From positions 118,758 to 182,757 of IMG/VR virus record IMGVR_UViG_3300022701_000122: a stretch of 64,000 nt of DNA; one strand, written 5' to 3'. The stretch comes from a virus. Numbering within the stretch: the first letter of the stretch is position 1; every line of letters begins with the position of its first letter. Shown piece by piece: positions 122-36,780 of this stretch. The translations under genes and the position numbers were made by a program. The notes below the pieces were generated by a model. It was not told the origin of the DNA. It made no database searches and saw only the letters and a list, made by a program, of their open reading frames with translations.

Positions 122-135
122 ATGAAGGACAAACT
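122..135 (+). promoter_or_regulatory. Candidate phage promoter motif ATGAAGGACAAACT
   Basis: Identical 14-mer at 3986..3999; both copies lie just after a terminator and before a beta-prime transcription unit. Confidence 0.5.
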
Positions 136-161
136 GTAAATTTGTATATAAAGGAGAATAT

Positions 162-1519: not shown

Positions 1520-2200
1520 ATGTATATATCAGAACAGTATTTAAATGAATTATCTTATTTCGTAACGCCATACGTTAAAAAATTAATAAATAATATCCCA
1601 ACTGTTACTAAAAAAGATTTCATTGGCAATGTTGAGCCAGGAGATATTGTTCTTGGATTTTCGCCAAGAGAACTGAAAACGGTAAGAACATCTAAGATAA
1701 TTGCATCTGTTCAACGATCACCATATACTACTTCAAAAATTGTTGCTGATAATAAGACTATTATTGGATATGGAGTTAAGGCAGTCAATACAGTTGATGA
1801 AAATTTTCTTAGAACATATCAATTAAGAAATTTATTAATTGAACGACATGAATTATGTTTAATTAGAATAAATGATGCTACACTTACACAAAAAAGAAAA
1901 GCTATAGATTTTTGTTTAAATAGACTTGGACTTGAATATAATTCTTCTGATTTATTGAAAACTATATGGAATGTTTTTACACGAAAGAAACTATTTCCAT
2001 TTTTTAGAAATGAACCATTGGAGAAAAAAGAAGTAGATAATTTACAAAGACCACTTTTTTGTTCTTCTATTATTGCATTGGGTTATTGGTATGCCGGATA
2101 TAAACATAAATTTAATGGTAAGAGTCCATACGAACTTTGGCCTATTGATTTTTTAATTGATGATAATACAACTGGTGTTTGTAGAGTGGAGCAATTATAA
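1520..2200 (+). CDS. Permuted papain-like (YiiX/YebB-type NlpC/P60) protein with N-terminal MYISEQYLNE tag
   Basis: VEPGDIVL...LGLEYN...LFCSSII..GY...P.DF order; the expected His (YSHVG) reads YTTSK. Confidence 0.65.
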   Translation: MYISEQYLNELSYFVTPYVKKLINNIPTVTKKDFIGNVEPGDIVLGFSPRELKTVRTSKIIASVQRSPYTTSKIVADNKTIIGYGVKAVNTVDENFLRTYQLRNLLIERHELCLIRINDATLTQKRKAIDFCLNRLGLEYNSSDLLKTIWNVFTRKKLFPFFRNEPLEKKEVDNLQRPLFCSSIIALGYWYAGYKHKFNGKSPYELWPIDFLIDDNTTGVCRVEQL

Positions 2201-2219
2201 AAAATAAAGGATAATCGTA

Positions 2220-2507
2220 ATGATGGATTTTTTTAAAGAACGTCACATTTATGATAAGTTAGTAGATGATAACGTATTAGTATGGGAAAGTCATGAAGAT
2301 GATGTAGATTATTTTGTAAAATGGACGAGAGTAAGTGATAATGAACACAGAATAAGAGAACATGTGCCAGTTAATAGATGTAATACATTTGGTCAATCAA
2401 GATTAAGTTTAAATTTTTTAAAAAAAGGAAAATATCAAATAGATATAACTGCATATAGTGAAAAAGGTCTTCAGAGTGATAAGTCATCTATTTTATTGTC
2501 AATATAA
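2220..2507 (+). CDS. Small fibronectin-III-like protein
   Basis: VWE...DYFVKW...KYQIDITAYSEKGLQS pattern. Confidence 0.5.
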   Translation: MMDFFKERHIYDKLVDDNVLVWESHEDDVDYFVKWTRVSDNEHRIREHVPVNRCNTFGQSRLSLNFLKKGKYQIDITAYSEKGLQSDKSSILLSI

Positions 2508-2566
2508 CAAACATTTTTATTAGTTAATGTCAATAGTATAAACACTGGTAAGAAAGGATTAAAGAA

Positions 2567-2971
2567 ATGAAGAAATTAAATTTTACATTAATTTTATTGC
2601 CGATTATTGTTGTTTGTTTTATGGTTTCCCCATTATTTGCTGCAACTGTAACATTAACATGGAATCAACCAAATGAATCGGAAGAAAATATTACGGAATG
2701 GGAAGTGTTTTGGGGATACGAGGGTAGAGGTGGAAACGGTGAAGAGTTTGTATACCAATTTAATCCAACCACAAATTCAGAATTACTTGTGACTGAGAAA
2801 ACATGCGTTATAGAAAATGTAGATAATGGAAAACAGACATTTTATGCAGTTAGAGCCAAATCTGGAGAAGTAAGAAGTTTTTATTCAGAAGAAGTATCAA
2901 CTACTATTCCATTATCAAGTCCATCTGGAATTCAGATTAATATATCGATAACGATTACAACAAATCCATAA
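2567..2971 (+). CDS. Secreted fibronectin-III domain protein
   Basis: Signal peptide (MKK + hydrophobic stretch + FAA), then VTLTWNQP...WEVFWG...FYAVRA...SFYSEEV. Confidence 0.7.
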   Translation: MKKLNFTLILLPIIVVCFMVSPLFAATVTLTWNQPNESEENITEWEVFWGYEGRGGNGEEFVYQFNPTTNSELLVTEKTCVIENVDNGKQTFYAVRAKSGEVRSFYSEEVSTTIPLSSPSGIQINISITITTNP

Positions 2972-3012
2972 ATAATTAATAGTAATTATATAATAAATAA
3001 AATGGGTGATTT

Positions 3013-3516
3013 ATGTTTTTATCAGAAGAATGCATCAATGAAAAAATAAATTTAAGTGAAGGAAAATTTTGGGAATGGTTAAAGAAAGTATTCTATGATC
3101 ATAATCCAAGACATCCACGAATGGTAGAATTAAATCAAGATTATTATGAATATATTTGGCATTGTAAAAGAGATCATCGAGATACAACGATGAAAGCAAA
3201 TATTCCAATTGGTAATGATACTGAAATAAAAATGGATTACGATGAAGAAAATATTCAAAAGACTGCATGTGTTCTTGAAGCACGTATTGAATATTTAGAA
3301 GGAATAATAGCTGTTATAGAGGAGGAAGGTATAGAGGAAGTTTGTCAATATAATAAATATAAATCGGAATGTCACAATGTATCACGTAATCTTCTTAGAG
3401 CATCAAAAATACGATTAAAACATGATAAAAAATATCTGCAAGGAATAAAATCTGGAAGGGTAAAACCAAGACGAGATTTTAAAGCAGAATTAGATAATGC
3501 CAAATATATAATTTAA
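3013..3516 (+). CDS. Hypothetical protein with N-terminal tag (MFLSEECINE)
   Basis: ORF; tag variant. Confidence 0.75.
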   Translation: MFLSEECINEKINLSEGKFWEWLKKVFYDHNPRHPRMVELNQDYYEYIWHCKRDHRDTTMKANIPIGNDTEIKMDYDEENIQKTACVLEARIEYLEGIIAVIEEEGIEEVCQYNKYKSECHNVSRNLLRASKIRLKHDKKYLQGIKSGRVKPRRDFKAELDNAKYII

Positions 3517-3533
3517 AATGAGAATAATAAAAA

Positions 3534-3899
3534 ATGTTTATATCAGAACAATACTTAACTGAAATGTCTGTTACTGTAAAATATAAACGAAAATTATTTG
3601 ATGCTATTGTTTGCCCAAATAGTGGCTTATATTTTTTAGCTGATTTTAATGATTGGTCTATAGAATGGGCTGAATATGTTGCTCTTGAAGAAGATATAGA
3701 TAAAATAACTGAAGATCATTGGAAAGTAATTCATTTTATTCGAAGTTATTACTCTAAATATAATAGACCACCACGTTTAAGAACAATATTTCGTAAAACT
3801 GGATTTAAGTTAATGCATATTTATGAACTATTCCCAAATGGTCCTGGTCGTGGTGCTGGACGAATGGCTGGACTCCCATATAAACAACTTCCGATATAA
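3534..3899 (+). CDS. dsrC: DsrC/TusE-family protein lacking both C-terminal cysteines, with MFISEQYLTE tag
   Basis: FNDWSIEWAEY...ITEDHWKVIHFIRSYY...TGFKLMHIYELFPNGPGRGAGRMAGLP matches DsrC (YELFPSGPGKGACKMAGLPKPTGCV). Confidence 0.9.
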   Translation: MFISEQYLTEMSVTVKYKRKLFDAIVCPNSGLYFLADFNDWSIEWAEYVALEEDIDKITEDHWKVIHFIRSYYSKYNRPPRLRTIFRKTGFKLMHIYELFPNGPGRGAGRMAGLPYKQLPI

Positions 3900-3928
3900 T
3901 ACATAAATAAAAGTTCAGATAATTTAAT

Positions 3929-3968
3929 AAAGCGTATCTATTTTATAATAGATACGCTTTATTTTTTT
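3929..3968 (+). terminator. Rho-independent terminator
   Basis: AAAGCGTATCTATT / AATAGATACGCTTT hairpin plus T tract. Confidence 0.8.
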
Positions 3969-3985
3969 AATAAAATTAAGGAAAT

Positions 3986-3999
3986 ATGAAGGACAAACT
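3986..3999 (+). promoter_or_regulatory. Candidate phage promoter motif ATGAAGGACAAACT
   Basis: Second identical copy, upstream of the C-terminal beta-prime gene. Confidence 0.5.
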
Positions 4000-4089
4000 A
4001 CAAATGAATATATTAATATAATCTAAATAAAATAAGATAATAATATATATAGTTACAACAACGCTATTTAAACAATGAGAGGTCTAAAT

Positions 4090-6858
4090 ATGGCGGTTGA
4101 GAAAATAACAACGGAAGAAGCAAGAAACATATTGTTAATGATGAGTCAAGGGTATAAAGTTCCAAAAATTGTAAAAGATGTAATATTTAAAGTTGCTAAG
4201 ACGGAGATAGAAGATAAAGGGAGAGTCGTAATTATAAAACGCGACCCAAATGTGGGATCACGTCGTATGCAGGGTATGTATGCTAAAATAGTTGATGGTA
4301 GTACTATGGAAATACATCCTGCTATCGTCGGTGGGTTTGGCGCAGATTTTGATGGTGACACCGTTAGGTGCAGACTTCGATGCACTTGTAAATTTGAGAA
4401 AAACGAAACAGGACATACTGTGAATCACGAATGTCATATAGGAGAAATTTTATCTGTTACTAATGCATTTGAGTTTTACAGTAAAGAAGAAAAAAGAAAT
4501 GGTATATTGGTATCGAAATATAAGCCTAAAAAAGGTTATACTGTAAAAATAAAAGCCATTGATATTGAAACTGGCAATGTTGAGATGAAAAATGTTTCTG
4601 AATATTCTATCCACGAATTTATAAAATTATACAAGATAGAAGATACAAAAGATAGATTTGAAACGATTCATGCTTCTTCAGATCATTCATTAATCGTTTA
4701 TGACGATAATGATAAACAGATTAAGAAAATTTCTCCTATAGACTTGTTGGAAAATCTTAATAATAGATATTTAATCAAAGAAAATAATAATACTAAATCA
4801 AATCATTTAAATGATATATCTATACAAAAACTGCAAGAAATGGGATTAGAATTAATACCAGTTTCAGAAGTTAATATAGAGTATGATCCAGATGAAACAA
4901 CTGGATATGATTTAACAGTAGATGATTTCTATACATTTGCAACTCATGATGGTTTATTTATTCAAGATACAATGGCTGTTTATCATCCAATTTCAAATGA
5001 AGCCCAAAAAGAAGTCAAAGATAAAATGATTTCTACATATGGTATAGAAGGATTAAATAAACCAAATTTTGAGTTATCAAAAGAAATGTTGACTGGTATT
5101 TTCACTCTTACATATGATGAGAATAAAAAATCTCAAATCAAAACTATAAAAAAAGCAGATGAAGCGAATACGTTACCCATTGATCAACGTGTTAAATTCA
5201 ATGATATAGAAACAACTGCTGGTAGAGTTGTATTTAATAGTAATTTACCAAAATATATTCCATTTGTTAATGAACCAATTGATAAAAAGAAATTAAATGG
5301 AATACTTGCAGGTATATTAGAAAAAAGTATTCAAGACAATGCCACTACAATTGATAAATTAATGAGAATTGGATTTTTTTATGCTACTGTATACCCAAAA
5401 ACTATGTCTATCGATATGATGAAATTAAATCCAAAACTTATTAAACTTAAACAAAAATTAGCCAATGAAGAAGATATTGCCAGACAAATGGATATTCAGA
5501 ATGAAATGGAATCTGAAATGTTGAAATATCTTGAAAAAAATCATAGCGATATTTTTTATATGGTTAAAAGTGGTGGAGCTAAAGGGAGTAATCAGATACG
5601 TCAATTAATGGTTGCGAAGGGATTAACATCAGACCCAATGGGAAATGTTATACCAGCAATTTCTACCAGTATTTCTGATGGTTATTCTCCAGAAGAATAT
5701 TTTAAAGTGTCTGCTGCTGGAAGGAAGGGTATAATTGATAGAGCATTAAACACCGCTAACGGTGGATATGCTTATAGAAAATTTATCTTCTTAATGGCGA
5801 ATGTTGAAGCAGATATAAATATTGGTGATTGTGATACTCCAAGAACATTAGATATCAAACTAACTAATGAATTGATGAAAAGAATGCCTGGAAGATATGT
5901 ATATAATAATAGTAATAAGATAATTCCCATTAATGAAAAAATGATTGGAAATGTTATAAAATTAAGATCTCCAATATTCTGTAGATCACAAAAGATTTGT
6001 AGAATTTGTTATGGTGATTTATTGAAACAATTGAAGAGTAAAAATGTAGGTATTCTGGCTAGTATGACCTGCACCAGCCTTTCAGAGCGCATAATGAAAG
6101 CATTTCATCTTGGTGGTGCTGTTATATTAAATAGAGTTGATATTATAAATGAAATTATGGATAATTTAAATGATGATATGTTGCAAAAAGTTAAATCATT
6201 AGTTCATCAGAAGGAAGATGACTTATTCAATGATTCTGAATTTGCAACTATAAGAATAGATAAAAATATATATAATTCAACTATACCATCAAATAGAATA
6301 GTCGAAGAACATGGTTTTATAAAATTAGTAGTTGGTCATTTTACATTATCTTTAGATGGGTTTGAAATAAATGTTGAAATAGAACAACCAGTTAAAATAT
6401 ATATTCCAGAAGAACGAGAAGATAATGATAATATAATATCTTGTATGTACGCAAAAGGAGATAAATTATTTAGAATTGAATCAATAAGAGAAGATTTTTC
6501 AAAATTGGCTCAGAATCTTGATGGGTTGGTTGCTGGAAAGTCTCCGTGGTCAAGTATTCCCGGTATATATAAGAAATTTTATAAACAGTTAAGTGTTGTT
6601 GGATCATGGGATTCAGTTCATTTAGAAACTATTATTTCAAATGTATTGAGAGCAAAGCGTAATCCACAAAAACCAGCAAGATTGGTTGAACCATTTGATC
6701 CAGATTTTTATTCAATTAAGAGATTGCCAGGAATGATGTCATGGCCCCTTGGCGTAGCCCTCGAAAATTTTTCTGTGGGGTTGCAAAGTGGGCTATGTGA
6801 GGATCGTGCTCCATCATCTCAAATTGAAAAAGTATTATTTGGAGAACCATTGTATTAA
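4090..6858 (+). CDS. rpoC: RNA polymerase beta-prime, catalytic/C-terminal part, intein-containing
   Basis: GADFDGD|intein|TMAVYHP; TTAGRVVFN; SGGAKG; GRKGIIDRALNTANGGYAYRK; ICRICYG; trigger-loop-like ERIMKAFHLGG. Start placed at MAVEK after a GAGGT SD (the ORF track starts at 4075). Confidence 0.93.
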   Translation: MAVEKITTEEARNILLMMSQGYKVPKIVKDVIFKVAKTEIEDKGRVVIIKRDPNVGSRRMQGMYAKIVDGSTMEIHPAIVGGFGADFDGDTVRCRLRCTCKFEKNETGHTVNHECHIGEILSVTNAFEFYSKEEKRNGILVSKYKPKKGYTVKIKAIDIETGNVEMKNVSEYSIHEFIKLYKIEDTKDRFETIHASSDHSLIVYDDNDKQIKKISPIDLLENLNNRYLIKENNNTKSNHLNDISIQKLQEMGLELIPVSEVNIEYDPDETTGYDLTVDDFYTFATHDGLFIQDTMAVYHPISNEAQKEVKDKMISTYGIEGLNKPNFELSKEMLTGIFTLTYDENKKSQIKTIKKADEANTLPIDQRVKFNDIETTAGRVVFNSNLPKYIPFVNEPIDKKKLNGILAGILEKSIQDNATTIDKLMRIGFFYATVYPKTMSIDMMKLNPKLIKLKQKLANEEDIARQMDIQNEMESEMLKYLEKNHSDIFYMVKSGGAKGSNQIRQLMVAKGLTSDPMGNVIPAISTSISDGYSPEEYFKVSAAGRKGIIDRALNTANGGYAYRKFIFLMANVEADINIGDCDTPRTLDIKLTNELMKRMPGRYVYNNSNKIIPINEKMIGNVIKLRSPIFCRSQKICRICYGDLLKQLKSKNVGILASMTCTSLSERIMKAFHLGGAVILNRVDIINEIMDNLNDDMLQKVKSLVHQKEDDLFNDSEFATIRIDKNIYNSTIPSNRIVEEHGFIKLVVGHFTLSLDGFEINVEIEQPVKIYIPEEREDNDNIISCMYAKGDKLFRIESIREDFSKLAQNLDGLVAGKSPWSSIPGIYKKFYKQLSVVGSWDSVHLETIISNVLRAKRNPQKPARLVEPFDPDFYSIKRLPGMMSWPLGVALENFSVGLQSGLCEDRAPSSQIEKVLFGEPLY
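4360..4968 (+). mobile_element. Mini-intein (203 aa, no endonuclease) in the beta-prime active-site motif
   Basis: Removing it restores ADFDGD-TMAVYH; block B IHASSDHSLIV; blocks F/G GYDLTVDDFYTFATHDGLFIQD; +1 Thr. Confidence 0.85.
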
Positions 6859-6867
6859 AAATTACCA

Positions 6868-6879
6868 TATATATTAAAT
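6868..6879 (+). promoter_or_regulatory. TATATATTAAAT candidate promoter
   Basis: One of 8 exact intergenic copies found by eye. Confidence 0.55.
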
Positions 6880-6939
6880 AATAAAGAGATGTTCTCATCA
6901 TTATTTTTTCATTGTTTAATATATAAGGAGAGTTATATT

Positions 6940-9231
6940 ATGACTGTAAAATGTGAAATTTGTGGAAGAGAATTTGAAAAAGTATTGGGTTTATCGAGAC
7001 ATATTGCTCATGCTATTAAAAATGATAATGTACGACATAATGGGATAACTGTAAGAGAATATTATGATAAATATATAAAAATTGATGAGAATGAAGGGAT
7101 ATGTCCAACTTGTGGATCAGAAACAGATTTTAAATCTATGGGGCGAGGTTATTCTAAATATTGTCCAAATAGAAAATGTTTAAGAATGAGTAAAGAAACT
7201 ATAAATAAAAGAAAACAAACTAATTTAGAAAAATATGGTGTTGAAAACCCATTATCAAATAAAGAAGTTCAAGAAAAACGAAAACAAACATTTATTAAAA
7301 ATTATGGAGTAGATAACCCATTAAAAAATAAAGATATTCAAAAAAAAGTAAAAAGGACTTGTTTAGAAAAATATGGTGTTGAAAACCCATTATCAAATAA
7401 AGAAGTTCAAGAAAAACGAAAACAAACAATGGTTAGACGATATGGTGTTGAAATATCGATTCAAAATAAAGAAATAAAAGATAAAATAAAGAAAACTAAT
7501 ATAGAGCGATATGGTGTAGATAATCCTGGAAAGTCTAAACAAGTTCAAGAAAAAATGAAGAAGACTAATATAGAACGACATGGTGTAGAAAATGTGTTTA
7601 TGATAGATTCTTTTCAAGAAAAAAGAAAGAAATCAATGATTAAAAAATATGGTGCAGAATATCCAATTCAAAATAAAGAAATAAAAAATAAAATAAAGAA
7701 AACTAATATAGATCGATATGGTGTAGAAAACCCATTACAAAATAAAGAAATAAAAGATAAAATAAAGAAAACTAATTTAGAACGGTATGGTACTGAATTT
7801 GGTCTTTCTTCAGAAGAAGTAAGAAAAAAAATTGAACAAACAAATACGGATAGATATGGTGTTAAGTCAACTCTTTCAGTTCCAGAAGTTCAAGAAAAAA
7901 TAAGACAGACTAATATTAAAAGATATGGTGTAGAATATCCGATTCAGAATAAAGAAATAAAAGATAAAATAAAGAAAACTAATTTAGAGCGATATGGTGT
8001 AGATAATGTGTTTATGTCTGACAAAATAAAGAAGCGAATTAAAGAAATTAATTTAGAACGATATGGTATAGAATATCCAGCTAAAAACAAAGAAATTTAT
8101 GATAAAGTTAGAAAAACAAATATGAAGAGATATGGAGTAAGAAACTATTCACAATCAAACGAATATAAAGAAAAAATTCAAAAATATTGGTTTAACAGAT
8201 TAATGAGTAATAAAACTATATTATCCAAAGTTGAACCATTATTTACTATAGATGATTTTGATGGTTTTTCAGATGGTCAAGAGTACACATTTAAATGTAA
8301 AAAATGTGATTCTATTTTTAATGGTAGAATAACAAATGGGTTAATTCCAAGATGTTATACATGTTATCCGTCTCATGGTACATCAATAGGTGAAAGAGAA
8401 ATATCTGAATTTTGTGAACAATATACAGAAGTTATAAATAATAGTAGATCTATATTAGAAGATGGAAAAGAAATAGATATATTTTTACCAGAATTTAATA
8501 TTGGTATAGAATTTGATGGGTTATACTGGCATAGTGAATATATTATAAATAAAGATTATCATCTTAATAAAACACTAAATGCTTTAGCTGTTGGGATTAA
8601 TCTTATTCATATTTTTGAAGATGAGTGGTATTCCAAATCAGAAATAATAAAGTCTATGTTGCTTTATAGAATGGGTAAAATAGAAAATAGAATATATGGA
8701 AGAAAATGTGAAATAAGAGAAGTATCTAAAAAAGATGAAATAACATTTTTAGATAATAATCATATAAGCGGATACGTTGGATCAAAAATAGCTATTGGAT
8801 TATATTATGAAGATGAACTTATATCAATAATGACATTTGGTAAATCAAGATTTAATAAGAAATATAATTATGAACTAATACGATTTTGCAATAAATTATT
8901 TACTACTGTTATTGGTGGAGCATCAAAATTATTCAAATATTTTATTTCAAATTATTCTATTTATTCTATTATTTCATATTGTAATATGAGATTTTCTACA
9001 GATGGCTTTTATTCAAAAATTGGGTTTGATTTAATTGATATTAGTAGACCAAATTATTTTTACGTTAATAGTAGTAATATACGTGAATCGAGAATTAAAT
9101 ATCAAAAACACAAATTAAAAGATAAATTAGAGACTTTTGATAATAAATTAACAGAGTATGAGAATATGCAATTAAATGGATATTATAGAATTTATGATTG
9201 TGGAAATTTAGTTTATACATGGGAGAAGTGA
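6940..9231 (+). CDS. Putative homing-type endonuclease: Zn fingers + 14 x 23-aa repeats + PD-(D/E)XK (Vsr-like) domain
   Basis: CxxC/HxxH N-terminus; TNLExYGVENPLxNKEIKEKIKK repeats; EIDIFLPEFNIGIEFDGLYWHSE; start after AAGGAG (the ORF track starts at 6889). Confidence 0.8.
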   Translation: MTVKCEICGREFEKVLGLSRHIAHAIKNDNVRHNGITVREYYDKYIKIDENEGICPTCGSETDFKSMGRGYSKYCPNRKCLRMSKETINKRKQTNLEKYGVENPLSNKEVQEKRKQTFIKNYGVDNPLKNKDIQKKVKRTCLEKYGVENPLSNKEVQEKRKQTMVRRYGVEISIQNKEIKDKIKKTNIERYGVDNPGKSKQVQEKMKKTNIERHGVENVFMIDSFQEKRKKSMIKKYGAEYPIQNKEIKNKIKKTNIDRYGVENPLQNKEIKDKIKKTNLERYGTEFGLSSEEVRKKIEQTNTDRYGVKSTLSVPEVQEKIRQTNIKRYGVEYPIQNKEIKDKIKKTNLERYGVDNVFMSDKIKKRIKEINLERYGIEYPAKNKEIYDKVRKTNMKRYGVRNYSQSNEYKEKIQKYWFNRLMSNKTILSKVEPLFTIDDFDGFSDGQEYTFKCKKCDSIFNGRITNGLIPRCYTCYPSHGTSIGEREISEFCEQYTEVINNSRSILEDGKEIDIFLPEFNIGIEFDGLYWHSEYIINKDYHLNKTLNALAVGINLIHIFEDEWYSKSEIIKSMLLYRMGKIENRIYGRKCEIREVSKKDEITFLDNNHISGYVGSKIAIGLYYEDELISIMTFGKSRFNKKYNYELIRFCNKLFTTVIGGASKLFKYFISNYSIYSIISYCNMRFSTDGFYSKIGFDLIDISRPNYFYVNSSNIRESRIKYQKHKLKDKLETFDNKLTEYENMQLNGYYRIYDCGNLVYTWEK
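7218..8185 (+). repeat. Coding tandem repeat, 69-bp period (14 units)
   Basis: 67-bp exact duplication at 7224..7290 and 7362..7428; YG(V) motif every 23 aa. Confidence 0.85.
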
Positions 9232-9236
9232 TTTAA

Positions 9237-9392
9237 ATGGAAAACGTAAATAAATATTTACTCGAAGATAAAAATAAAGATGAAAAGGATATAAGATATA
9301 TAGTTAAAGAAATGATTCTTCTTAATTATAGAATGTCTGTATCATTTATGAATTTTCAACTTAAGCAACTTAAATTATTTTTTAATAAATAA
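9237..9392 (+). CDS. Small hypothetical protein (51 aa), not in the ORF track
   Basis: MENVNKYLLE... fills the gap between two genes. Confidence 0.5.
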   Translation: MENVNKYLLEDKNKDEKDIRYIVKEMILLNYRMSVSFMNFQLKQLKLFFNK

Positions 9393-9409
9393 AAAGGATG
9401 TGATTTGCT

Positions 9410-10309
9410 GTGACACAAGGTAGTTATAAGAAACGTAATCCCGAAGATGTTGTTCATAAATGTAGAGTTTGTGGATATGAAGCAACTAATTGGACTGATT
9501 TTAAGAAACATGTAACAAGATGGACAAAATATCATCCAACTCTTGAAAAATATTATATCCGATATATGAAGAACGATGGAGAAGGAATATGTGCTATTGA
9601 TGGTTGTAATAATGAAACTGAATTTATAACAATTAATGGTGATAAATCATATAAATTATATTGCAATGAACACTTTCCAAAACATGTTCAGATAAGAACT
9701 GATGAAGAAATAGAGCATAATAAGAAAGTATGTCAAATATGCGGAAAGGAAAATATAAAGAAGATTGGTGGTCATACATATCTATGTCATAAAATTACTG
9801 CTAAAGAATACTATGATAAATATTTAACGAAGTATGAAGATGAGAAAATATGTTCAGTATGTGGTCGAGATGTTACTTTTACTGGTAGAGTAACGGCAGG
9901 ATATTATAGGACATGTACTCATCTTGGAGTATGTGCTAAATTAGATAAAGAGTACAAAAAGAAACAAAAATCTGTTTCATTAAAAAAATATGGAGTAGAT
10001 AATCCTGCAAAATCTCCTGTAATAATTGAAAAAATAAAAAGATCTACTAAAGAGAATAAGGATAAAGAGTTACGTAGATTAAAACTAAAGCTATCTAAAC
10101 CAAATATATATGTATTAAATATAAAAGAATTTGCTGATAAACATGATATTATAGAATCAAAAAGAAAAAATAGTAAAGAAGAATTAGAATGTATTATTAA
10201 AGAAGTTGATGATGATAATTCTGAATTAGAATGTAGTGATTCGAATGGAATAATTATAAAAAAATCAATAAAAAAAGATAAGACCATCTTCAATTTTGGA
10301 AAATTCTAA
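9410..10309 (+). CDS. Zn-finger protein: two CxxC-H-H/YYxxY/CxxC modules plus one KYGVDNP repeat
   Basis: Paralogous to the N-termini of the two endonucleases; lacks a nuclease domain. Confidence 0.7.
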   Translation: MTQGSYKKRNPEDVVHKCRVCGYEATNWTDFKKHVTRWTKYHPTLEKYYIRYMKNDGEGICAIDGCNNETEFITINGDKSYKLYCNEHFPKHVQIRTDEEIEHNKKVCQICGKENIKKIGGHTYLCHKITAKEYYDKYLTKYEDEKICSVCGRDVTFTGRVTAGYYRTCTHLGVCAKLDKEYKKKQKSVSLKKYGVDNPAKSPVIIEKIKRSTKENKDKELRRLKLKLSKPNIYVLNIKEFADKHDIIESKRKNSKEELECIIKEVDDDNSELECSDSNGIIIKKSIKKDKTIFNFGKF

Positions 10310-10314
10310 CTGTT

Positions 10315-10506
10315 ATGAGAAATAAAGATATAAAGAATCTAATAAAAAATAATATTACATGTAATAAATGTATTGGGTGTGGAAAAAAGTTTGTCACATT
10401 TGAAGATTATATGGATCATATGGAAAGATTTAAACAACGAGTTAAATTAATAATAGTTCTTAAAAAAATAATATTGAAAGCGATTGATTCTAATGATGAT
10501 AACTAA
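10315..10506 (+). CDS. Small Zn-finger-like protein
   Basis: CIGCGKKF..FEDYMDH. Confidence 0.55.
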   Translation: MRNKDIKNLIKNNITCNKCIGCGKKFVTFEDYMDHMERFKQRVKLIIVLKKIILKAIDSNDDN

Positions 10507-10822
10507 AGAAATTCAATACACTGAAAATGTACCTACATTCAAAACTCGACAGTTAACTTTTCCAATATATTTAATATATGATATGACTAATAAAGATAAT
10601 CCAAATGAACAAGAATGTTGTCTTTATTGGAGAATAGATGAGTTTTTAAATTGTACTAAAATATATATAAATGATTGTTTTGATAGCAAATCTATTACAT
10701 TAGAATTTGAGCAAATAGACGGAACAAAATTAATAGAAATGATGAATGAATATAATGAAACAAATGAATGTGATTTCAGATCAGCAATATGTGAATTAGA
10801 GAATAAGATGTTAAATTTGTGA
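10493..10822 (+). CDS. Hypothetical protein
   Basis: ORF (the track starts at 10484). Confidence 0.6.
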   Translation: MMITKEIQYTENVPTFKTRQLTFPIYLIYDMTNKDNPNEQECCLYWRIDEFLNCTKIYINDCFDSKSITLEFEQIDGTKLIEMMNEYNETNECDFRSAICELENKMLNL

Positions 10823-10830
10823 AAAAAACA

Positions 10831-11047
10831 AGCATTTACTTATTACCCGAATAATTCGGTAAATGCTCTGGCGCACATACTTCACGCCAATTTCTCGTAT
10901 AGGACCATGTACTCTCTGATATCCATGATCCCATTCGGGTTTACGGTCAGGGCACCAATCTTGACAACGGGTGCTTTTATTAACTACATATATGTATCAG
11001 AGCCATATATATAGCACACTATAGAAAGTACAAATTTTCTATAGTGT
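10831..11047. ncRNA. Candidate structured RNA, possibly on the minus strand
   Basis: GC-enriched ORF-free gap with 6-7 stems; on the minus strand it ends in a hairpin plus U tract. Confidence 0.4.
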
Positions 11048-11086
11048 TATTACTTAATATATAGTGAATTTATAAGGAGAAATTGT

Positions 11087-11350
11087 ATGAATAAGTTAAA
11101 ATGTAGAGAGTGTGGAAAAGAGTTTAAAAATGTAGCTGCTACAAGTAGACATGTAACAAAAGAACATAATATGAAAGTTAAAGATTATTATGATAAATAT
11201 TTTAAAGAAAATGGAGAAGATAAGTGTAAAAACGATCTTTGTGTTGGAGGTGGAAAGAACAGTTTTCTATCATTGGGTAGAGGGTACAATAATTGCTGTT
11301 GTACTAAGTGTGGATCAATATGGGGATTAAGTCGAAATAAGAAAGGGTAG
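11087..11350 (+). CDS. Stand-alone Zn-finger module protein
   Basis: CRECG..H...H.MKVKDYYDKY...C...C...GRGY..CC..C. Confidence 0.75.
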   Translation: MNKLKCRECGKEFKNVAATSRHVTKEHNMKVKDYYDKYFKENGEDKCKNDLCVGGGKNSFLSLGRGYNNCCCTKCGSIWGLSRNKKG

Positions 11351-11354
11351 ATTT

Positions 11355-11609
11355 ATGAATGATAAAACAAAGTGTAAACTATGTGAAAAAAAATTTGTAA
11401 ATATATCAGAAATCAGTAAGCATATAATAAACGATCATAATATTTCAGTTAAAGAATATTATGATCGTTTTTATAAGGAAGATGGAGAAGGAGAGTGTGC
11501 AAATATCATATGTGGAAAAGAAACAAGATTTTTGTCATTAGGTCGTGGATATAATTTATGTTGTAGTACTGGTTGTGGAATGGATTATGGTCGCTGGCAA
11601 AAAAACTAA
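11355..11609 (+). CDS. Stand-alone Zn-finger module protein (paralog)
   Basis: CKLC..H...H..VKEYYDRFY...GEC...CG..TRFLSLGRGY. Confidence 0.75.
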   Translation: MNDKTKCKLCEKKFVNISEISKHIINDHNISVKEYYDRFYKEDGEGECANIICGKETRFLSLGRGYNLCCSTGCGMDYGRWQKN

Positions 11610-11633
11610 ACCTTATTGGAGGACAAATTTTAA

Positions 11634-11882
11634 ATGATATGTCAGATATGCAAAAAGAGATATGATGATTCATATTGGTTTTTATATCATTTAACTAAAG
11701 GTTACAATGAGGGTACTCATTGTAGTCATCAAGAATATTATGACAGATTCATGGCAATTGATGGGAATGATGTTTATTGCATTCGAAAAGGATGTGATAA
11801 CTTATGTAAACTAATAGATGCTATATCTGGATATGAAGATTATTGTTCAAAAGAATGTGAACAAAAAGATAAAAGGGTGTAA
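11634..11882 (+). CDS. Stand-alone Zn-finger module protein (paralog)
   Basis: CQIC...H...H.SHQEYYDRF...C..C...GY..YCSKEC. Confidence 0.7.
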   Translation: MICQICKKRYDDSYWFLYHLTKGYNEGTHCSHQEYYDRFMAIDGNDVYCIRKGCDNLCKLIDAISGYEDYCSKECEQKDKRV

Positions 11883-11888
11883 TAAATT

Positions 11889-13853
11889 ATGTATACATAC
11901 TTGTCAGAAGAATACATTGAAGAATTTACTATGTTTTCTCCAGAAATAAAAGAAGCTGGTAAATATATTACTGTTTCTAAATTTCCAGTAAACATATTTA
12001 AAGCTGATCTAAAAAGGCAATATAATACTATAAAAATTGCCAATGTTTTTGATCATGCTTTCTTATTCTTTGGAACTGGTAAATTAAGAATTCATAAATT
12101 CTTCTTACCAGAATTTGTATATCTTCTGACAATATTACCACCTTATCCCATCTATTCAAAAGTAAGAGAACTTATATATAGAGATACATGGATGGCAAAT
12201 ACTGTTAAGAATTTTTCATCCATAATTGATTATTCGGCTATATCTAAAATGCTATTTACTCCAATGTCTCATCAGAAGAAGTTTATTGATTTATATCAAG
12301 ATAGAAAACAAAAATTTCTTCTTAATGGATATATATTGGCATTTGACATGGGCCTCGGAAAAACTGCCACATCTTTATTTTTAATGGAAGGGTTACATAA
12401 AGATGTAGTAATCATCATTGCTCCAAAAAGTACCTTGTTACCCGTTTGGAGCAATGAGATTGATAATATATTTAAAGATCATAAAGAAAAATGGCTACCA
12501 TTTGATAGACCAAAACCAGCAGATTTTTTTATTGTTAATTATGAATCCATAGATAAATTAAAAAATGTTTTACCATATTTAAGAAGAGCAAAAAATGTTG
12601 GTATAGTTGTTGATGAATGTCATAATTTCAGAAATGCTAAAACAAAGAGAGTTCAAAATCTAAAGAAAATAGCCGATTTAACAAATTGTAAAGATATATT
12701 GTTAATGAGTGGTACTCCAATTAAAGCATTGGGAACTGAAATTATACCAGTTCTTGAACTCATTGATCCATTTTTCGATGATGAGAGCAAAGTTGTATTC
12801 AAAAAAGCTTTTGGTGTAAATGTGCCAGTTGCACTCGATATTGTTAAGAATAGACTTGGTATAATGATGCATAGGAAGTTGAAGACAGAAGTTCTTAAGC
12901 TTCCAAAAAAATTTATAAAAGAAATAAAAATAAAAATAAGTAATGGGATGGATTTTACTCTTGTATCTGTTAAGAAACAAGTTATGGATTTTATAGTTGA
13001 AAGAAAAGCATATTATGCCAAAAATATGTACAAATATAGAGCAGATTACAATGAATGTATTGTGTATCTTAGATCACAAATACCATATAATGATCCAGAT
13101 TTTGTAGAATATAGAAAAATAGTCGATTATCTTACTAAAAAAGGTTATGATCGACAGAATCAAAAAGTTGTAGAAAAAGTTGCTTGGGCTAATAATTACG
13201 AAAAAGAAGTATTACGTCCATTATTAACATCAGAACTAAAAAAGAAATTTGATAAATCTAAATCTGCTGTAAAATATGTAGATTTGAAGATAATGGGTGA
13301 AGTCATAGGTGGATTGTTATCAAGACTTAGAGTAGCGATGTTTAAAGAGATGATAAATAATAGTCCAACTTGTAAAATAATAAATGATGCTAAGAAAAAA
13401 ACAGTTATGTTTACAACTTATGTGGACGTTTTAAAAGAAGCAAATAGTTATTTAAGAAGAAAATGTAAAAAAGATCCAATATTGATTTATGGAGATACAA
13501 GTAAGAATATAAAAACTGAATTAAGAAAATTTAAAGCCGATGAGACAATTAATCCACTTGTTGCAACAATTCAAACACTTTCAACTGGTGTTACGCTAGT
13601 TGAAGCAAATACTGTCATCTTTATAAATAAGCCTTGGAGAGATGCAGATATGCAGCAAGCTACAGATCGAATATACCGCATTGGTCAGACGGATGATGTT
13701 TACATATATACATATACATTAGATACTGGAAATGAACCAAATCTTTCAACTCGAATGGATGATATATTAGCATGGTCTAAAGAGATGTTTGAAGGGATAG
13801 TTGGTGAAAAGGAAGCCGAACAAGTTATAAAAAGATTAGCTTATAGAGGATAG
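11889..13853 (+). CDS. SNF2-family helicase/ATPase with N-terminal tag (MYTYLSEEYIEE)
   Basis: DMGLGKT, VNYESI, DECH, MSGTP, STGVTL, QATDRIYRIGQ. Confidence 0.9.
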   Translation: MYTYLSEEYIEEFTMFSPEIKEAGKYITVSKFPVNIFKADLKRQYNTIKIANVFDHAFLFFGTGKLRIHKFFLPEFVYLLTILPPYPIYSKVRELIYRDTWMANTVKNFSSIIDYSAISKMLFTPMSHQKKFIDLYQDRKQKFLLNGYILAFDMGLGKTATSLFLMEGLHKDVVIIIAPKSTLLPVWSNEIDNIFKDHKEKWLPFDRPKPADFFIVNYESIDKLKNVLPYLRRAKNVGIVVDECHNFRNAKTKRVQNLKKIADLTNCKDILLMSGTPIKALGTEIIPVLELIDPFFDDESKVVFKKAFGVNVPVALDIVKNRLGIMMHRKLKTEVLKLPKKFIKEIKIKISNGMDFTLVSVKKQVMDFIVERKAYYAKNMYKYRADYNECIVYLRSQIPYNDPDFVEYRKIVDYLTKKGYDRQNQKVVEKVAWANNYEKEVLRPLLTSELKKKFDKSKSAVKYVDLKIMGEVIGGLLSRLRVAMFKEMINNSPTCKIINDAKKKTVMFTTYVDVLKEANSYLRRKCKKDPILIYGDTSKNIKTELRKFKADETINPLVATIQTLSTGVTLVEANTVIFINKPWRDADMQQATDRIYRIGQTDDVYIYTYTLDTGNEPNLSTRMDDILAWSKEMFEGIVGEKEAEQVIKRLAYRG

Positions 13854-13857
13854 ATTA

Positions 13858-14460
13858 TTGAAAATAGATGTGAAAGTTATTGGACATCAAAGATGTGGGA
13901 ATAATTATTTAGCTAATTTAATAAAATTAAATTTTGGAGATGATGTAGAAGTACAAAGTGATTTACACGGGATACTTAGCAGAGACAAAGTACAATATTG
14001 TGTTTATTATGTATATATTGTTAGAAGAATTGGACCAGTTATGAAATCTATGTATAAATTAAGAAATAGATTTGGTTTGAACGTTTCTTCTTATAATGAA
14101 TTTAAAAAAACAAGATACAGAGATATGTGGTCTGAAAATATAAAATCGAAAAATGTTATAATAGATGGAAATAATAAATCTGATTATGTTAGTGATAGAT
14201 TTAAGAAAAATAAACATACTCCTATACAATGGTATAACAAACATGTATCGGATTGGGTTGATTTAAAAAGTGAATTCAAAAATATATGCATTATTCATTA
14301 TGAAGATTTAATAATTAATTTTAATGGAACTATGAATAGAATATCTGATTTTTTTGGTTTAGGAAAAAGAAAGAGTTTTAAAAATATAGATAAAAAAGTT
14401 GGTCCAAGAATAATTGATGATGAAGTAATAAATAAAAAATACATAGATAAAATGAGGTAA
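13858..14460 (+). CDS. Sulfotransferase-fold protein
   Basis: GHQRCGNNYL (5'-PSB loop), YIVRR...KSMY (3'-PB), IHYEDL. Confidence 0.7.
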   Translation: MKIDVKVIGHQRCGNNYLANLIKLNFGDDVEVQSDLHGILSRDKVQYCVYYVYIVRRIGPVMKSMYKLRNRFGLNVSSYNEFKKTRYRDMWSENIKSKNVIIDGNNKSDYVSDRFKKNKHTPIQWYNKHVSDWVDLKSEFKNICIIHYEDLIINFNGTMNRISDFFGLGKRKSFKNIDKKVGPRIIDDEVINKKYIDKMR

Positions 14461-14464
14461 TTTA

Positions 14465-15085
14465 ATGCGAGAAATTGTAAAAGTATTTGGACATCAGCGA
14501 AGTGGAAACCATTATTTGAATCAGTTACTGAAATTAAATTTTGAAAAATTTATTAATATTAAAATAGAAACAAATCATAAATTACTTAAACCAGAAGATA
14601 TAGATAAAAATATAAGTTATATTTATATAATTAGAAATAGAGAAGCTGTTTTGAAATCATTATTCAGAATGAAAGATAGTTATGGATTAGATATTGATAG
14701 TTATGAAAATTTTATATCAACAAGATATTGTGATATGTGGTCTGAAAATATTAAATCAAAAAGTAGAATGATTAGAAGAATTGATTCATCTCTTAATGAA
14801 ACTGTAGAACATACAAGTGAGTGGTTTAGAAATATAAAACATAATCCAATAAAATGGTATAACATTCATTGTAAGCATTGGGTTGATTTAAATCATAAAT
14901 TTGATAATATTTATATAATCTATTATGAAGAAATTATAAAGCATTTTAATGACACACTTGGAAATATAAGAAAATTTTTAGGAATAATTGAGAAAATAAA
15001 ATTCAAAGATGTAAAGCTTAAAATTGGTCCAAGCAAAATTAATGATAATAAAATTCATAATGATTATATCAAAAAGGCATCATAA
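14465..15085 (+). CDS. Sulfotransferase-fold protein (tandem paralog)
   Basis: GHQRSGNHYL, YIIRNREAVLKSLF, IYYEEI; shares DMWSENIKSK with the upstream gene. Confidence 0.7.
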   Translation: MREIVKVFGHQRSGNHYLNQLLKLNFEKFINIKIETNHKLLKPEDIDKNISYIYIIRNREAVLKSLFRMKDSYGLDIDSYENFISTRYCDMWSENIKSKSRMIRRIDSSLNETVEHTSEWFRNIKHNPIKWYNIHCKHWVDLNHKFDNIYIIYYEEIIKHFNDTLGNIRKFLGIIEKIKFKDVKLKIGPSKINDNKIHNDYIKKAS

Positions 15086-15615
15086 TGTTTATATCAGAAG
15101 AATATATTAAAAACTTTTTTCATTATGAATATTGGCTTTCCAGAAATTTATGGAATGATAAAGTACATGAAGCCATGAAGACGTTTGGTGTCTTTTTTGA
15201 TTTAGAAAATAATGATACTAATAAAGAACAAAGAAATATTACAATTCCACAAGATAGATGGGAACATTCTAAGTGTAAATTTAGATGTGAAATGTGGGTT
15301 GCTGGTGGTGATTGGGAGTATCCAGTTCATTATTTTAGATGTCAATTAGCAGACGGTTATGCTTATGAATTGCGACAATATGGTGATCCATTTTTTATTT
15401 TTATACCAAATAAAGAAGAAGGTAACTCCCATCTTGTTGAAATTGATAAGGGTAAAAATAAAGGTGATTTTAGAGCGCCTCATGATGGTGAAAAAGAATA
15501 TGATCCAAAAGTAGATAAAAATCCAAGTAAACGTAAATGTTGGGAATCATTAAATAAATATTTGAAAAAATTGGTTGATATGGAAATTGAGAAGAATAAA
15601 AAGGGTAAAGAGTGA
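15085..15615 (+). CDS. Hypothetical protein with MFISEEY tag
   Basis: ORF; tag. Confidence 0.75.
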   Translation: MFISEEYIKNFFHYEYWLSRNLWNDKVHEAMKTFGVFFDLENNDTNKEQRNITIPQDRWEHSKCKFRCEMWVAGGDWEYPVHYFRCQLADGYAYELRQYGDPFFIFIPNKEEGNSHLVEIDKGKNKGDFRAPHDGEKEYDPKVDKNPSKRKCWESLNKYLKKLVDMEIEKNKKGKE

Positions 15616-16190
15616 TGTTCATATCTGAAGAATATGTTACTATACAAAATAGAAAAGTTTATCATTTAGTTACTGGTAATATTAAAACAATAAAGAAGTA
15701 TGGATTGTGTTCTCCACGTAGAATGTATGAAGTTGATAAAAATTTATTTATGAAAACTTCTTATTCTATTTATCAGAAACGTGCGGCAGATTATAAAAAT
15801 ATTTCTATTAATGACGTAACAGCAGAAGATATATTATATTACTTAGATAATTCACCTCAACGAGTACCACAATTTAGCTCACGTTCTTTATTTTTTAGTT
15901 ATTTGCCTCTATCTGAACATCATAATGATTTACAAAAATATTTTTCAAATGCTATAGAATTAAGCTTACCAATGAAATTTTTAGAAATGTATTATAGCAA
16001 ACCAGTAATTGTTGGACCAGGACCACCTGCTATTGTTAGCAATTGGAATATTATTAAAGATCCCAAGTTTATGGAAACTGTTAAGAAAGCAGCAAGAAGG
16101 AAGCCGCATCCAGTACTTAGATTTAAATATATTCCACATTTAGCAGTTGATGCTTACCATATTCCATTTAATAAATTTGAGGTTATTTAA
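15615..16190 (+). CDS. Tagged protein, possible ADP-ribosyltransferase-like fold
   Basis: MFISEEYVT tag; VYHLVTGNIKTIKKYGLCS resembles the YHxT..L.SI...GL.S start of DarT/Tpt1-like ARTs (the track starts at 15612). Confidence 0.5.
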   Translation: MFISEEYVTIQNRKVYHLVTGNIKTIKKYGLCSPRRMYEVDKNLFMKTSYSIYQKRAADYKNISINDVTAEDILYYLDNSPQRVPQFSSRSLFFSYLPLSEHHNDLQKYFSNAIELSLPMKFLEMYYSKPVIVGPGPPAIVSNWNIIKDPKFMETVKKAARRKPHPVLRFKYIPHLAVDAYHIPFNKFEVI

Positions 16191-16261
16191 TGTATATATC
16201 AGAACAATTCATAAATGAAAAATGTAGTAGTACAGATCGAATAAAAAAACTAAAGTATTAG
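16190..16261 (+). pseudogene. Tag-only mini-ORF MYISEQFINEKCSSTDRIKKLKY, possibly frameshifted at an A7 run
   Basis: ATG overlaps the upstream stop; one extra A would extend the frame (KTKVLAEEKYKSAKECMLKMG...). Confidence 0.5.
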
Positions 16262-16318
16262 CAGAAGAAAAATATAAATCAGCTAAAGAATGTATGTTAA
16301 AAATGGGGGTTAAAATAA

Positions 16319-16846
16319 ATGTATATATCAGAACAATACTTAAATGAATTTTTAAAAGGTAAATATTCATACATACACATTGATCTTATAAAAATATATA
16401 ATGAATATCTATCAAATATAAGAAATTGTGTTAGATATTATGATGAAAATAATCAAGGGGATAATGAATTACATTTTTTTATAATAGAGCACGGTCATAT
16501 AAGTATACCAGTAACTACTAAAATGGAATATGGTTCATTTGTTCAAAATTTACCAATTTTTTCTATTCGTAAAAGAGATACTTATAAAGATTCTGGTTTC
16601 CATAGTGTTTATTTTGAACATAATATACCGATTACTAAATTCGCATTATGTACTGCACTCAATGATCAGAAATTATTAATGAATTGTCTTAAATTTATTA
16701 ATAATACAAATATTGATGAATTATATAATGGTTACTTTTGGGATAGAGATTATTGTATTGGTAGTTATGATTATATTAAAAAAGATATTAAATATTCTTT
16801 AAATCAATATAAACAAATGATTATAGAATTTAAAAGGAAAATGTAA
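16319..16846 (+). CDS. Hypothetical protein with MYISEQYLNE tag
   Basis: ORF; tag. Confidence 0.75.
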   Translation: MYISEQYLNEFLKGKYSYIHIDLIKIYNEYLSNIRNCVRYYDENNQGDNELHFFIIEHGHISIPVTTKMEYGSFVQNLPIFSIRKRDTYKDSGFHSVYFEHNIPITKFALCTALNDQKLLMNCLKFINNTNIDELYNGYFWDRDYCIGSYDYIKKDIKYSLNQYKQMIIEFKRKM

Positions 16847-16848
16847 AT

Positions 16849-17571
16849 ATGTATATATCAAAACAATTCATAAATGAAAAATGTAGTAGTACAATAATGT
16901 TTTTATCGGAACAATACTTAACTGAAAAATTAGAAGACATCAGAGTTGATAAAAAATGGTATGATTTATTTAATACTAAATTGAAAAAAGCTTTATTAAA
17001 AGAAACTGAAATGGTATTTCTAAAACATTTTAGATTATCTCATCCAATTATTGATTCAAGAAAAACATCTATGATATTTGATCATCAAATACTTGGAGTT
17101 AGTATTAGTGTTACTATTGTATTATATGATAAATTTGGAAATCGTATAATGTATGAAAGTGAAGATTTTCCAGGTCAAGATCAATTTGCTGTGTATTTAA
17201 AAAGAAATAAAAAATCTGGAAGATGGAGTATAGAATATTATAACTTGAATGTTAAAGAGGAATATAGAAATAAAGGTATAGAACGACAATTGATGCAGTC
17301 AGTAAATAAATGTGTAAAAATATTGCAAAATGAACGAACTGTAACTCTTGAAACGATGGATGATGAACGATATTTTATCTCAAGAATGCCTGGAGTTCGA
17401 TTTGCAGATGGAGATCCTTATGGAATAATTGGTGTTCAAAAAGCTTATAAATATTGGTGCAGGAGGAATAAGATACCATATGAAATTCTTACTTTACCAT
17501 CAGAATACCCAAGAGATTTTTTAACTTCAAAACATGCACCACCTTTTATAGAATATGTTATCAATATTTAA
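16849..17571 (+). CDS. GNAT-like protein with two tandem N-terminal tags
   Basis: MYISKQFINE...MFLSEQYLTE; YNLNVKEEYRNKGIERQLM resembles GNAT motif A. Confidence 0.6.
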   Translation: MYISKQFINEKCSSTIMFLSEQYLTEKLEDIRVDKKWYDLFNTKLKKALLKETEMVFLKHFRLSHPIIDSRKTSMIFDHQILGVSISVTIVLYDKFGNRIMYESEDFPGQDQFAVYLKRNKKSGRWSIEYYNLNVKEEYRNKGIERQLMQSVNKCVKILQNERTVTLETMDDERYFISRMPGVRFADGDPYGIIGVQKAYKYWCRRNKIPYEILTLPSEYPRDFLTSKHAPPFIEYVINI

Positions 17572-23979: not shown

Positions 23980-23983
23980 TTAT

Positions 23984-24187
23984 ATGAATACAATTACAAT
24001 AAATCAATTTATTATATTATATAAATATAATCCTGTAACATTAGATAATTTAACCATTAATTATAATGTAACAAGAAGAGAATATTGGATTAATTTAAGC
24101 AATTCGTTTAACTGGTATATGTTAAAAGATCCAATTAATATTTTTAATATAATCAATAATATAGGAATTAACGGAATAATAGTATGA
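23984..24187 (+). CDS. Small protein, shared C-terminal motif family
   Basis: Ends DPINIFNIINNIGINGIIV. Confidence 0.7.
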   Translation: MNTITINQFIILYKYNPVTLDNLTINYNVTRREYWINLSNSFNWYMLKDPINIFNIINNIGINGIIV

Positions 24188-29351: not shown

Positions 29352-29399
29352 TGCGGACAAATAATAAATTGAATATATAATATTATAGGAGATATTACA

Positions 29400-33727: not shown

Positions 33728-33739
33728 TATATATTAAAT
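33728..33739 (+). promoter_or_regulatory. TATATATTAAAT candidate promoter
   Basis: Exact copy ~150 nt upstream of the 33891 gene. Confidence 0.55.
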
Positions 33740-34799: not shown

Positions 34800-34805
34800 G
34801 AGACG

Positions 34806-35378: not shown

Positions 35379-35379
35379 T

Positions 35380-36752: not shown

Positions 36753-36780
36753 CTTTAAATCATTATATTTGGAGGGGCAA

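Follow-up and report, generated by a model that had tools for sequence, protein, structure and literature searches.

A portable ten-residue N-terminal tag in an uncultured giant phage clade, probably a capsid-targeting propeptide of the T4 type

In phage T4, the internal proteins (IPs) IPII and IPIII carry a short capsid-targeting sequence (CTS), and IPI, Alt and gp24 carry related leaders, all removed by the protease gp21 (Mullaney and Black 1996, reviewed in PMC9026906 and PMC5694885). Here we describe a leader of similar length in IMG/VR virus record IMGVR_UViG_3300022701_000122 (182,757 bp, G+C content of 28%, completeness of 58% by CheckV; hereafter G000), in which a ten-residue N-terminal tag is repeated at the start of unrelated open reading frames (ORFs). 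The window that was analyzed is the final 64 kb of this record (positions 118758-182757, plus strand); coordinates below refer to the window unless given as record positions. A first-pass annotation, made from the letters of the window, had proposed that the tag marks a cargo of proteins packaged in the head and injected at infection. The present analysis indicates that the tag is probably a T4-style capsid-targeting propeptide.

The IPIII leader is indeed as the first-pass annotation had given it: in the T4 record both IPII and IPIII begin with the ten residues MKTYQEFIAE, and IPI has a related leader of 19 residues with the end I-T-E. Comparable ends occur at residue 10 of gp24 (L-R-E), at residue 9 of gp22 (I-A-E) and at residue 9 of gp21 itself (L-I-E), the last of which is also documented in the literature (PMC9026906). 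The protease gp21 cleaves after Glu in the motif I/L-x-E (PMC12991175), and the capsid protein gp23 loses 65 residues (PMC5694885). The T4 internal proteins, which are located among the packaged DNA, are described as basic (PMC9026906). Leader mutants of IPIII, as reviewed, assign residues 4 and 7 to targeting and residues 8 and 10 to processing, and an Asp at residue 10 blocks cutting, not loading (PMC9026906).

Three other groups of phages offer points of comparison. The hypervariable loci of T-even phages comprise more than 30 IP variants with only the CTS in common (Repoila et al. 1994 and Comeau et al. 2007, cited in PMC2839356; PMC3012670). In phages phiKZ, 201phi2-1 and SPN3US, ejection and inner-body proteins have long propeptides that are cut after Ser/Ala/Gly-x-Glu by gp21-related proteases (PMC5694885, PMC9026906). 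In phage P1, an N-terminal segment of DarB steers this anti-restriction protein, or a reporter, into the capsid (PMC9024508). Within the literature searched, no description was found of a short shared leader of the present kind outside the T-even group.

A ten-residue leader on unrelated proteins

The tag has the consensus M-[YF]-[ILV]-S-E-x-[YF]-[ILV]-x-E and occurs in 13 copies in G000, ten of which lie inside the window. The genome-wide scan that the first-pass annotation had recommended was carried out with a position matrix over six frames of the entire 182,757-bp record, where the 13 copies scored 22-30 bits and the next best sequences 13-14 bits. A degenerate DNA pattern of the tag, applied to the window with up to two mismatches, gave nine matches, compared to a mean of 0.01 in 100 dinucleotide-preserving shuffles, none of which reached nine. 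None of the 13 copies is out of frame, and all of them start an ORF except the copy at 16897, which sits behind another tag in the same ORF. The three copies beyond the window are found at record positions 48254 (+), 7818 (-) and 9994 (-). De novo clustering of all ORF N-termini returned the tag group as the largest N-terminal cluster of the genome. All ten tags that had been listed were recovered at their coordinates, each immediately following the start Met; a further “weak match” at 9237 scored below 11 bits and was dropped. The leader-like start of the 9237 ORF ends in Y-L-L-E, resembling the leader of P0005, an orthologue of another tagged protein (see below).

Relatives were collected by a capsid-protein search, which yielded eleven IMG/VR loci, and four whole records were read. 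About ten tags are present in G002 (236 kb) and nine in G003 (275 kb), on unrelated bodies, and G004 has a tagged pair in common with G003. Tags from G000, G002 and G003 were pooled into a set of 30. The capsid proteins of the tag-bearing phages are 64-69% identical, and the tag is retained on orthologues with identities of 24-32%. In G005, whose capsid protein is 50% identical, a variant leader built around Y-L-N and ending in L-x-E is carried by four unrelated basic proteins (G005 loci 86019-87293 (-), 102517-103466 (-) and 192566-192808 (+)), and the metagenomic protein P0008 has both leader types in tandem. With the tag shared by G000, G002, G003 and G004 and a variant of it in G005, the label extends across the clade and changes along with the lineage. 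It is restricted to this clade: the strict tag DNA pattern had no IMG/VR matches beyond the record of G000 itself, and a looser pattern gave 35 exact matches in 2.9 million IMG/VR contigs, of which 13 are in G002, G003 and G004, the rest being almost without exception short ORFs that lack a ribosome-binding site.

Analysis of the pooled set revealed that the tag is constrained as a peptide. Ser4 is invariant in the 30 tags and is encoded by TCA, TCT, TCG and TCC and, three times, by AGT. Tyr or Phe occupies position 2 in 29 tags and position 7 in 28; Ile, Leu or Val is found at position 8 in all 30 and at position 3 in 29; and Glu is present at position 5 in 26 and at position 10 in 18. The swaps between Tyr and Phe, among Ile, Leu and Val, and between Glu and Gln are conservative. 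Synonymous codons are used approximately as in the genome, save for an excess of TCA at Ser4 (20/30, versus 33% in the genome), and the 60 nt upstream of the tag starts have no similarity except a purine-rich ribosome-binding site. Because the codons of the invariant Ser4 come from two families with no connection, TCN and AGT, and the upstream DNA is not conserved, the constraint acts on amino acids. The first-pass annotation had named a conserved DNA element as the explanation that would undo its proposal; tested here, that explanation gave way to a constraint at the amino-acid level with synonymous variation present.

The tag reads as two half-repeats, [YF]-[ILV]-S-E and [YF]-[ILV]-x-E, each of which fits the motif of a T4-type head protease. 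The end [ILV]-x-E is located at residues 8-10 in 11 of the 13 G000 tags (at 11-12 in three longer variants), and at least one [ILVT]-x-E lies inside the first ten residues of all 30 tags from the three genomes.

The bodies behind the tags are unrelated, as had been claimed: BLASTP of the 30 bodies with the first 16 residues removed found only two cross-genome orthologue pairs and no two alike within any genome. Two tagged proteins with solid family assignments are informative about how the tag is attached. The first, encoded at 3534-3899 (+, 121 aa), has the tag (3534-3563) and then, from Met11 onward, an entire DsrC/TusE-like domain (PF04358, 84.7 bits). When this protein was aligned with 15 bacterial DsrC proteins, each 105-106 aa long, the tag was extra N-terminal length and Met11 fell on their start, so that the tag does sit directly before the original start Met; both conserved Cys residues are replaced in the phage protein. 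Its closest homologues are 105-aa proteins labelled Desulfobacterales/Deltaproteobacteria, with identities of 50-55%, and this cargo hints at a sulfate-reducing host. The second, encoded at 11889-13853 (+, 654 aa), has a 12-residue tag variant (11889-11924) on an SNF2-family ATPase, an identity borne out by PF00176 (60.5 bits) in addition to PF00271; the orthologue in G002, with an identity of 54%, begins about 12 residues later and is untagged. The untagged SNF2 orthologue, the tag added before the DsrC Met and the unrelated bodies demonstrate that the tag is portable.

The other tagged ORFs in the window have few recognizable bodies. The ORF at 1520-2200 (+, 226 aa; tag at codons 1-10, 1520-1549) has a body weakly like the permuted papain-like amidase family C92, and the ORF at 16849-17571 (+, 240 aa) has tandem tags (16849-16878 and 16897-16926) before a weakly GNAT-like body. 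The matches behind these two first-pass labels exist, but all of them fall below the curated cut-offs (PF05708, E 0.001, for the former; PF13508, E 0.0019, and phrog_3810, E 0.0025, for the latter); an ART-like body had also been proposed and found no support from family or fold searches. The 1520 ORF (3-row alignment) and the 16849 ORF (single sequence) were also modelled with AlphaFold2, and the models, with a mean predicted local distance difference test score (pLDDT) of 33-34, were not used. The metagenomic proteins P0007 and P0008 are orthologous to the 1520 ORF product; their leaders are about 20 residues longer, with S4, N9 and E10 at the same junction, which reads [IL]-N-E. The body of the 3013-3516 ORF (+, 167 aa; tag 3013-3042) has no family assignment, and its G002 orthologue retains the tag. 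Bodies without a family match also follow the tags of the ORFs at 15085-15615 (+, 176 aa; tag 15085-15114, with Asn at residue 10), 15615-16190 (+, 191 aa; tag 15615-15644, with Ile at residue 10) and 16319-16846 (+, 175 aa; tag 16319-16348). For the 15615 ORF, neither a family nor a fold match was found, with no usable match in the Atlas look-up and a pLDDT of 0.37 for its own model; its orthologue P0005 (53% identity) has a different ten-residue leader, with the end Y-L-N-E. Every remaining tagged body is an orphan for which no more than one or two metagenomic homologues were found. At 16190-16261 (+), the tag is present as listed, but in place of a full tagged ORF there is a 23-codon stub without cargo; apart from one mismatch, the first 45 nt of the stub are identical to the beginning of the 16849 ORF, and the stub is probably a recombination relic.

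Head machinery, cargo charge and gene position

The capsid protein of G000 is encoded at record positions 24943-26397 (-) and matches PF07068 (Gp23) with 107 bits from residue 83. The closest cultured capsid proteins are those of the Bacillus phages AR9/PBS1, with an identity of 22%. Ten capsid proteins of the clade, which are 42-67% identical over the first 100 residues, have in common the invariant pairs L6/E8, L44/E46 and L68/E70, with a middle residue that varies at the first two. These three Leu-x-Glu sites within the first 70 residues look like a conserved set of T4-like propeptide cleavage sites.

A prohead protease was sought as well, and a T4-type Peptidase_S77 with the catalytic His and Ser was found at record positions 33178-33891 (-). 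It matches PF03420 with 39-40 bits against a cut-off of 27, and the head-maturation protease family phrog_207 at 6e-30. Its His70 and Ser129 align pairwise with His85 and Ser140 of T4 gp21, the catalytic pair that is mutated to inactivate the T4 enzyme (PMC12991175), and both residues are invariant in seven clade proteases. The clade proteases themselves begin with a conserved hydrophobic-x-Glu at residues 4-8, in line with the L-I-E of T4 gp21. A complex prediction that paired the protease (7-row alignment) with residues 1-45 of the 1520 ORF product gave a score of 0.00 without controls and counts neither way. The portal-position gene of G000 (record positions 34462-39207 (-), 1581 aa) contains intein splicing, HNH and HINT domains and is probably a portal gene interrupted by inteins.

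The cargo is predominantly basic. Bodies with an isoelectric point (pI) above 8 make up 27 of the 30 tagged proteins, whereas the share among the remaining 954 ORFs is 48% (P 1.6e-6 by binomial test, P 3e-9 by Mann-Whitney test). Moreover, some relatives have tagged genes within the head module. G003 and G004 each encode two such proteins (75 and 82 aa, pI of ~12) directly upstream of the protease; the portal-position gene and the gene of a conserved acidic protein lie upstream of this pair, which occupies the place of T4 genes 67 and 68. In G005, the gene of a tagged basic protein of 80 aa adjoins the portal-position gene.

A promoter-like motif, GGACAAAyTnTAAAT, has 26 matches in the record, 20 of them within 150 nt upstream of an ORF, and is kept in G001-G003. 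It precedes the capsid, protease and polymerase operons and, directly, several tagged genes, which is a weak sign of co-expression with the head, as the motif does not set structural genes apart from replication genes. Two window sites, both tentative, lie at 127-141 (+), before the operon with the N part of the RNA polymerase subunit beta-prime and the tagged genes 1520-3899, and at 11621-11635 (+), before the block with the tagged SNF2 gene and the tagged genes 15085-17571. The other window sites are 3991-4005, 29355-29369 and 44944-44959, and sites at record positions are 26899 (-), 34381 (-), 48207 (+), 10026 (-) and 9321 (-).

By analogy with T4, the tagged proteins would be packaged, cleaved and injected, and might act as host-takeover effectors. 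During prohead building, the first ~8 residues, with the aromatic residue 2, Ser4, Glu5 and the aromatic residue 7, would dock the protein to the scaffolding core, and the docked protein would be enclosed by the gp23-type shell. The T4-type core serine protease would then cut after Glu in [ILV]-x-E, a motif available at tag residues 8-10 and 3-5. The basic mature protein, freed among the packaged DNA, would exit the head together with the DNA at infection. With a length of only 30 nt, this address could be attached to any gene.

Competing explanations

That the tag is a capsid-targeting propeptide of the T4 type is, in our judgment, the probable explanation. It is supported by the peptide constraint, the S77 protease, the L-x-E sites of the gp23-type capsid protein and the motif at the tag end, and further by the basic cargo, the head-module copies in relatives and the presence or absence of the tag on orthologues; each sequence-based test with the power to refute it favored it instead. 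Several observations weigh on the other side. No gp22-type scaffold was recognized among the head-module ORFs with Pfam and PHROGs. Glu10 is absent from two of the 13 G000 tags and from most G003 tags, so cutting at residue 10 cannot be universal; these tags keep [IV]-S-E at residues 3-5 and would still offer the protease motif of the first half-repeat. G001, the nearest relative by capsid protein, holds only two degenerate tags. The likeness to the T4 CTS spans about six residues (acidic, aromatic, [IL]-x-E), a stretch for which no statistic can be given, and convergence on a common protease motif may account for it. In addition, the promoter-like motif also precedes a clamp-loader-like gene, and late expression is thus not proven by it.

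An unlikely alternative, though the best placed, is that the tag sorts or docks proteins to a place that is not the capsid, such as the phage RNA polymerase, a membrane site or a replication compartment. A tagged gene adjoins the gene of the beta-prime N part in all four genomes, and one conserved tagged family has a hydrophobic segment that, by eye, looks membrane-spanning. However, other tagged genes are distant from the polymerase (record positions 7818, 9994 and 48254) or inside the head modules of G003 and G005, and the polymerase subunits are untagged. Such a destination would also leave unexplained the basic cargo and the tag end, which is the motif of the head protease and recurs in the capsid protein.

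It is also rather improbable that the tag serves as a recognition leader for a modifying enzyme, in the manner of ribosomally synthesized and post-translationally modified peptides, with a radical S-adenosylmethionine (SAM) enzyme or sulfotransferases acting on Ser4 or Tyr. The invariance of Ser4 and the acidic residues that flank Tyr would fit such a role, and candidate enzymes are at hand. A pair of Sulfotransfer_1 paralogues is embedded in the cluster of tagged genes, at 13858-14460 and 14465-15085; sulfotransferase-like and APS-kinase-like genes, named by N-terminal motifs only, lie near tagged genes in G002; and a radical SAM gene (PF04055, record positions 116607-117617) is located ~1.1 kb before the window and, in all four genomes read, lies directly upstream of the polymerase operon. 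Yet the G000 sulfotransferases have no counterpart in G001-G003, though G002 and G003 carry 8-11 tags each, whereas the radical SAM gene is equally present in the tag-poor G001 and has no SPASM domain; co-occurrence of the tag with either enzyme across G000-G003 was not found. Both aromatic positions accept Phe, which cannot be sulfated, and the basic cargo, the [ILV]-x-E ends and the head-module position would remain without explanation.

Very improbable is a nucleotide element, whether a start context, a translation enhancer or a recombination joint, of which the peptide would be a by-product. The over-use of TCA at Ser4 would favor it, and the 45-nt duplicate at 16190 and 16849, the stub and the tandem tag indicate that tag DNA takes part in rearrangements. 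The use of both TCN and AGT at Ser4, the variation of positions 2, 3, 7 and 8 among similar residues only, third positions that vary about as in the genome, and a motif that is never out of frame or on the other strand all argue the other way, and this codon evidence excludes a nucleotide element as the main constraint. Equally remote is a functionless, neutral remnant of repeated 5'-end duplication among neighboring accessory genes: most copies lie within 16 kb and one 45-nt duplication is recent, but the tag is kept on different bodies at 64-69% capsid identity and on orthologues at 24-32% identity, its substitutions are conservative, and further copies are found at distances above 70 kb and on the opposite strand, which suggests purifying selection.

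The clade and its relation to described systems

The window encodes a multisubunit RNA polymerase, with the beta-prime N part at 574-1500, the beta-prime C part at 4075-6858 and beta at 17595-21704. By likeness to annotated phage polymerases, this set could be assigned to neither the virion nor the non-virion type, with identities of 19-25% and mixed annotations. The beta-prime gene is split within Rpb1 domain 2 (profile position 40 versus 96), and the gap holds five genes, three of them tagged; G001 has a single gene in the same gap. The beta-prime C part has an intein-like stretch at residues 158-292 (24.6 bits, below cut-off), near the catalytic DFDGD loop. A second, divergent beta/beta-prime set, 25-37% identical to the window set, is found at ~141-147 kb in G002 and ~165-171 kb in G003 and is absent from the incomplete G000 record. 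With this second set, the gene content indicates that the clade carries two multisubunit polymerases, like AR9 and phiKZ.

A multi-copy family, with a zinc-finger-like N-terminal start, DUF7487 repeats and a restriction-endonuclease-like C part, is present at 6889-9231 and 21817-23979 and at record positions 22816-24693 (-) and 1967-3349 (-), with at least six copies in relatives; it looks like a mobile element that has colonized the polymerase operon. One ORF, 4675 codons in length, fills record positions 76282-90309 and has DUF2341 and laminin-G-like domains close to its C end.

If the tag works as in T4, a sequence rule lists the head-carried proteins of an uncultured clade, a list that normally requires a cultured phage and virion proteomics. 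The list is unusual, comprising an SNF2 ATPase, a Cys-less DsrC, a papain-like amidase and orphans, which are candidates for action on the host in the first minute. T4 capsid addressing would then be far older and wider than the T-even phages, reaching phages of the AR9/phiKZ type with two polymerases, and the label would drift together with the head machinery. For engineering, such leaders would be further natural labels for loading phage heads. We put forward only tentatively a broader proposal, in which the leader is an evolvable address label that turns any captured gene into a protein delivered together with the DNA in the earliest phase of infection, and which also comprises the following three roles. 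The 30-nt label may double as a joint for swapping cargo, as suggested by the 16190 stub, the 16849 tandem tag and the label variants of more distant relatives. The Cys-less, host-derived DsrC could be injected as a decoy against sulfite respiration in a sulfate-reducing host, and the SNF2 ATPase could serve early transcription alongside a packaged polymerase.

Compared to DarB of phage P1, the tag differs in several respects: the P1 signal is longer than nine and at most 30 residues, has no consensus among Dar proteins and no protease-linked motif, and belongs to another head type. Like the phiKZ group, the clade consists of giant phages that have two sets of multisubunit RNA polymerase and a protease related to gp21. 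In that group many head-internal proteins are processed after Glu, with propeptides of 80-130 residues, a small P3 residue and no shared portable tag, whereas the present leader has ~10 residues and its P3 is Leu, Ile or Val as in T4. As in the T-even IP loci, a single leader is found on many unrelated, fast-evolving proteins, gene content varies among close relatives, and there are signs of recombination at conserved ends (the 16190 stub and the 16849 tandem tag); in contrast to those loci, the carriers here are located at several sites, including the split beta-prime gene, and several are enzyme-sized.

The closest counterpart is the T4 CTS. Both are leaders of ~10 residues at the extreme N-terminus, with a hydrophobic-x-Glu end and an aromatic residue at position 7; conservation is among the highest at tag positions 4, 7 and 8, and Glu occupies position 10 in 18 of 30 tags. 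The tag at record position 9994 ends in Q-E-Y-I-A-E, compared to Q-E-F-I-A-E in T4. A shell of the gp23 family, basic cargo and an S77 protease, down to its catalytic His and Ser, are further features in common. The tag differs from the T4 CTS in its fixed Ser4, largely fixed Glu5 and two half-repeats, and in that some tags are without Glu10. Furthermore, the phage is not T4-like outside the head, and its relatives have two sets of multisubunit RNA polymerase; the carriers number about a dozen per genome and include a 654-aa SNF2 ATPase and a DsrC-like protein. Altogether, the CTS mechanism has been known from T4 since 1996, and what differs here is the lineage, the sequence of the label and the cargo.

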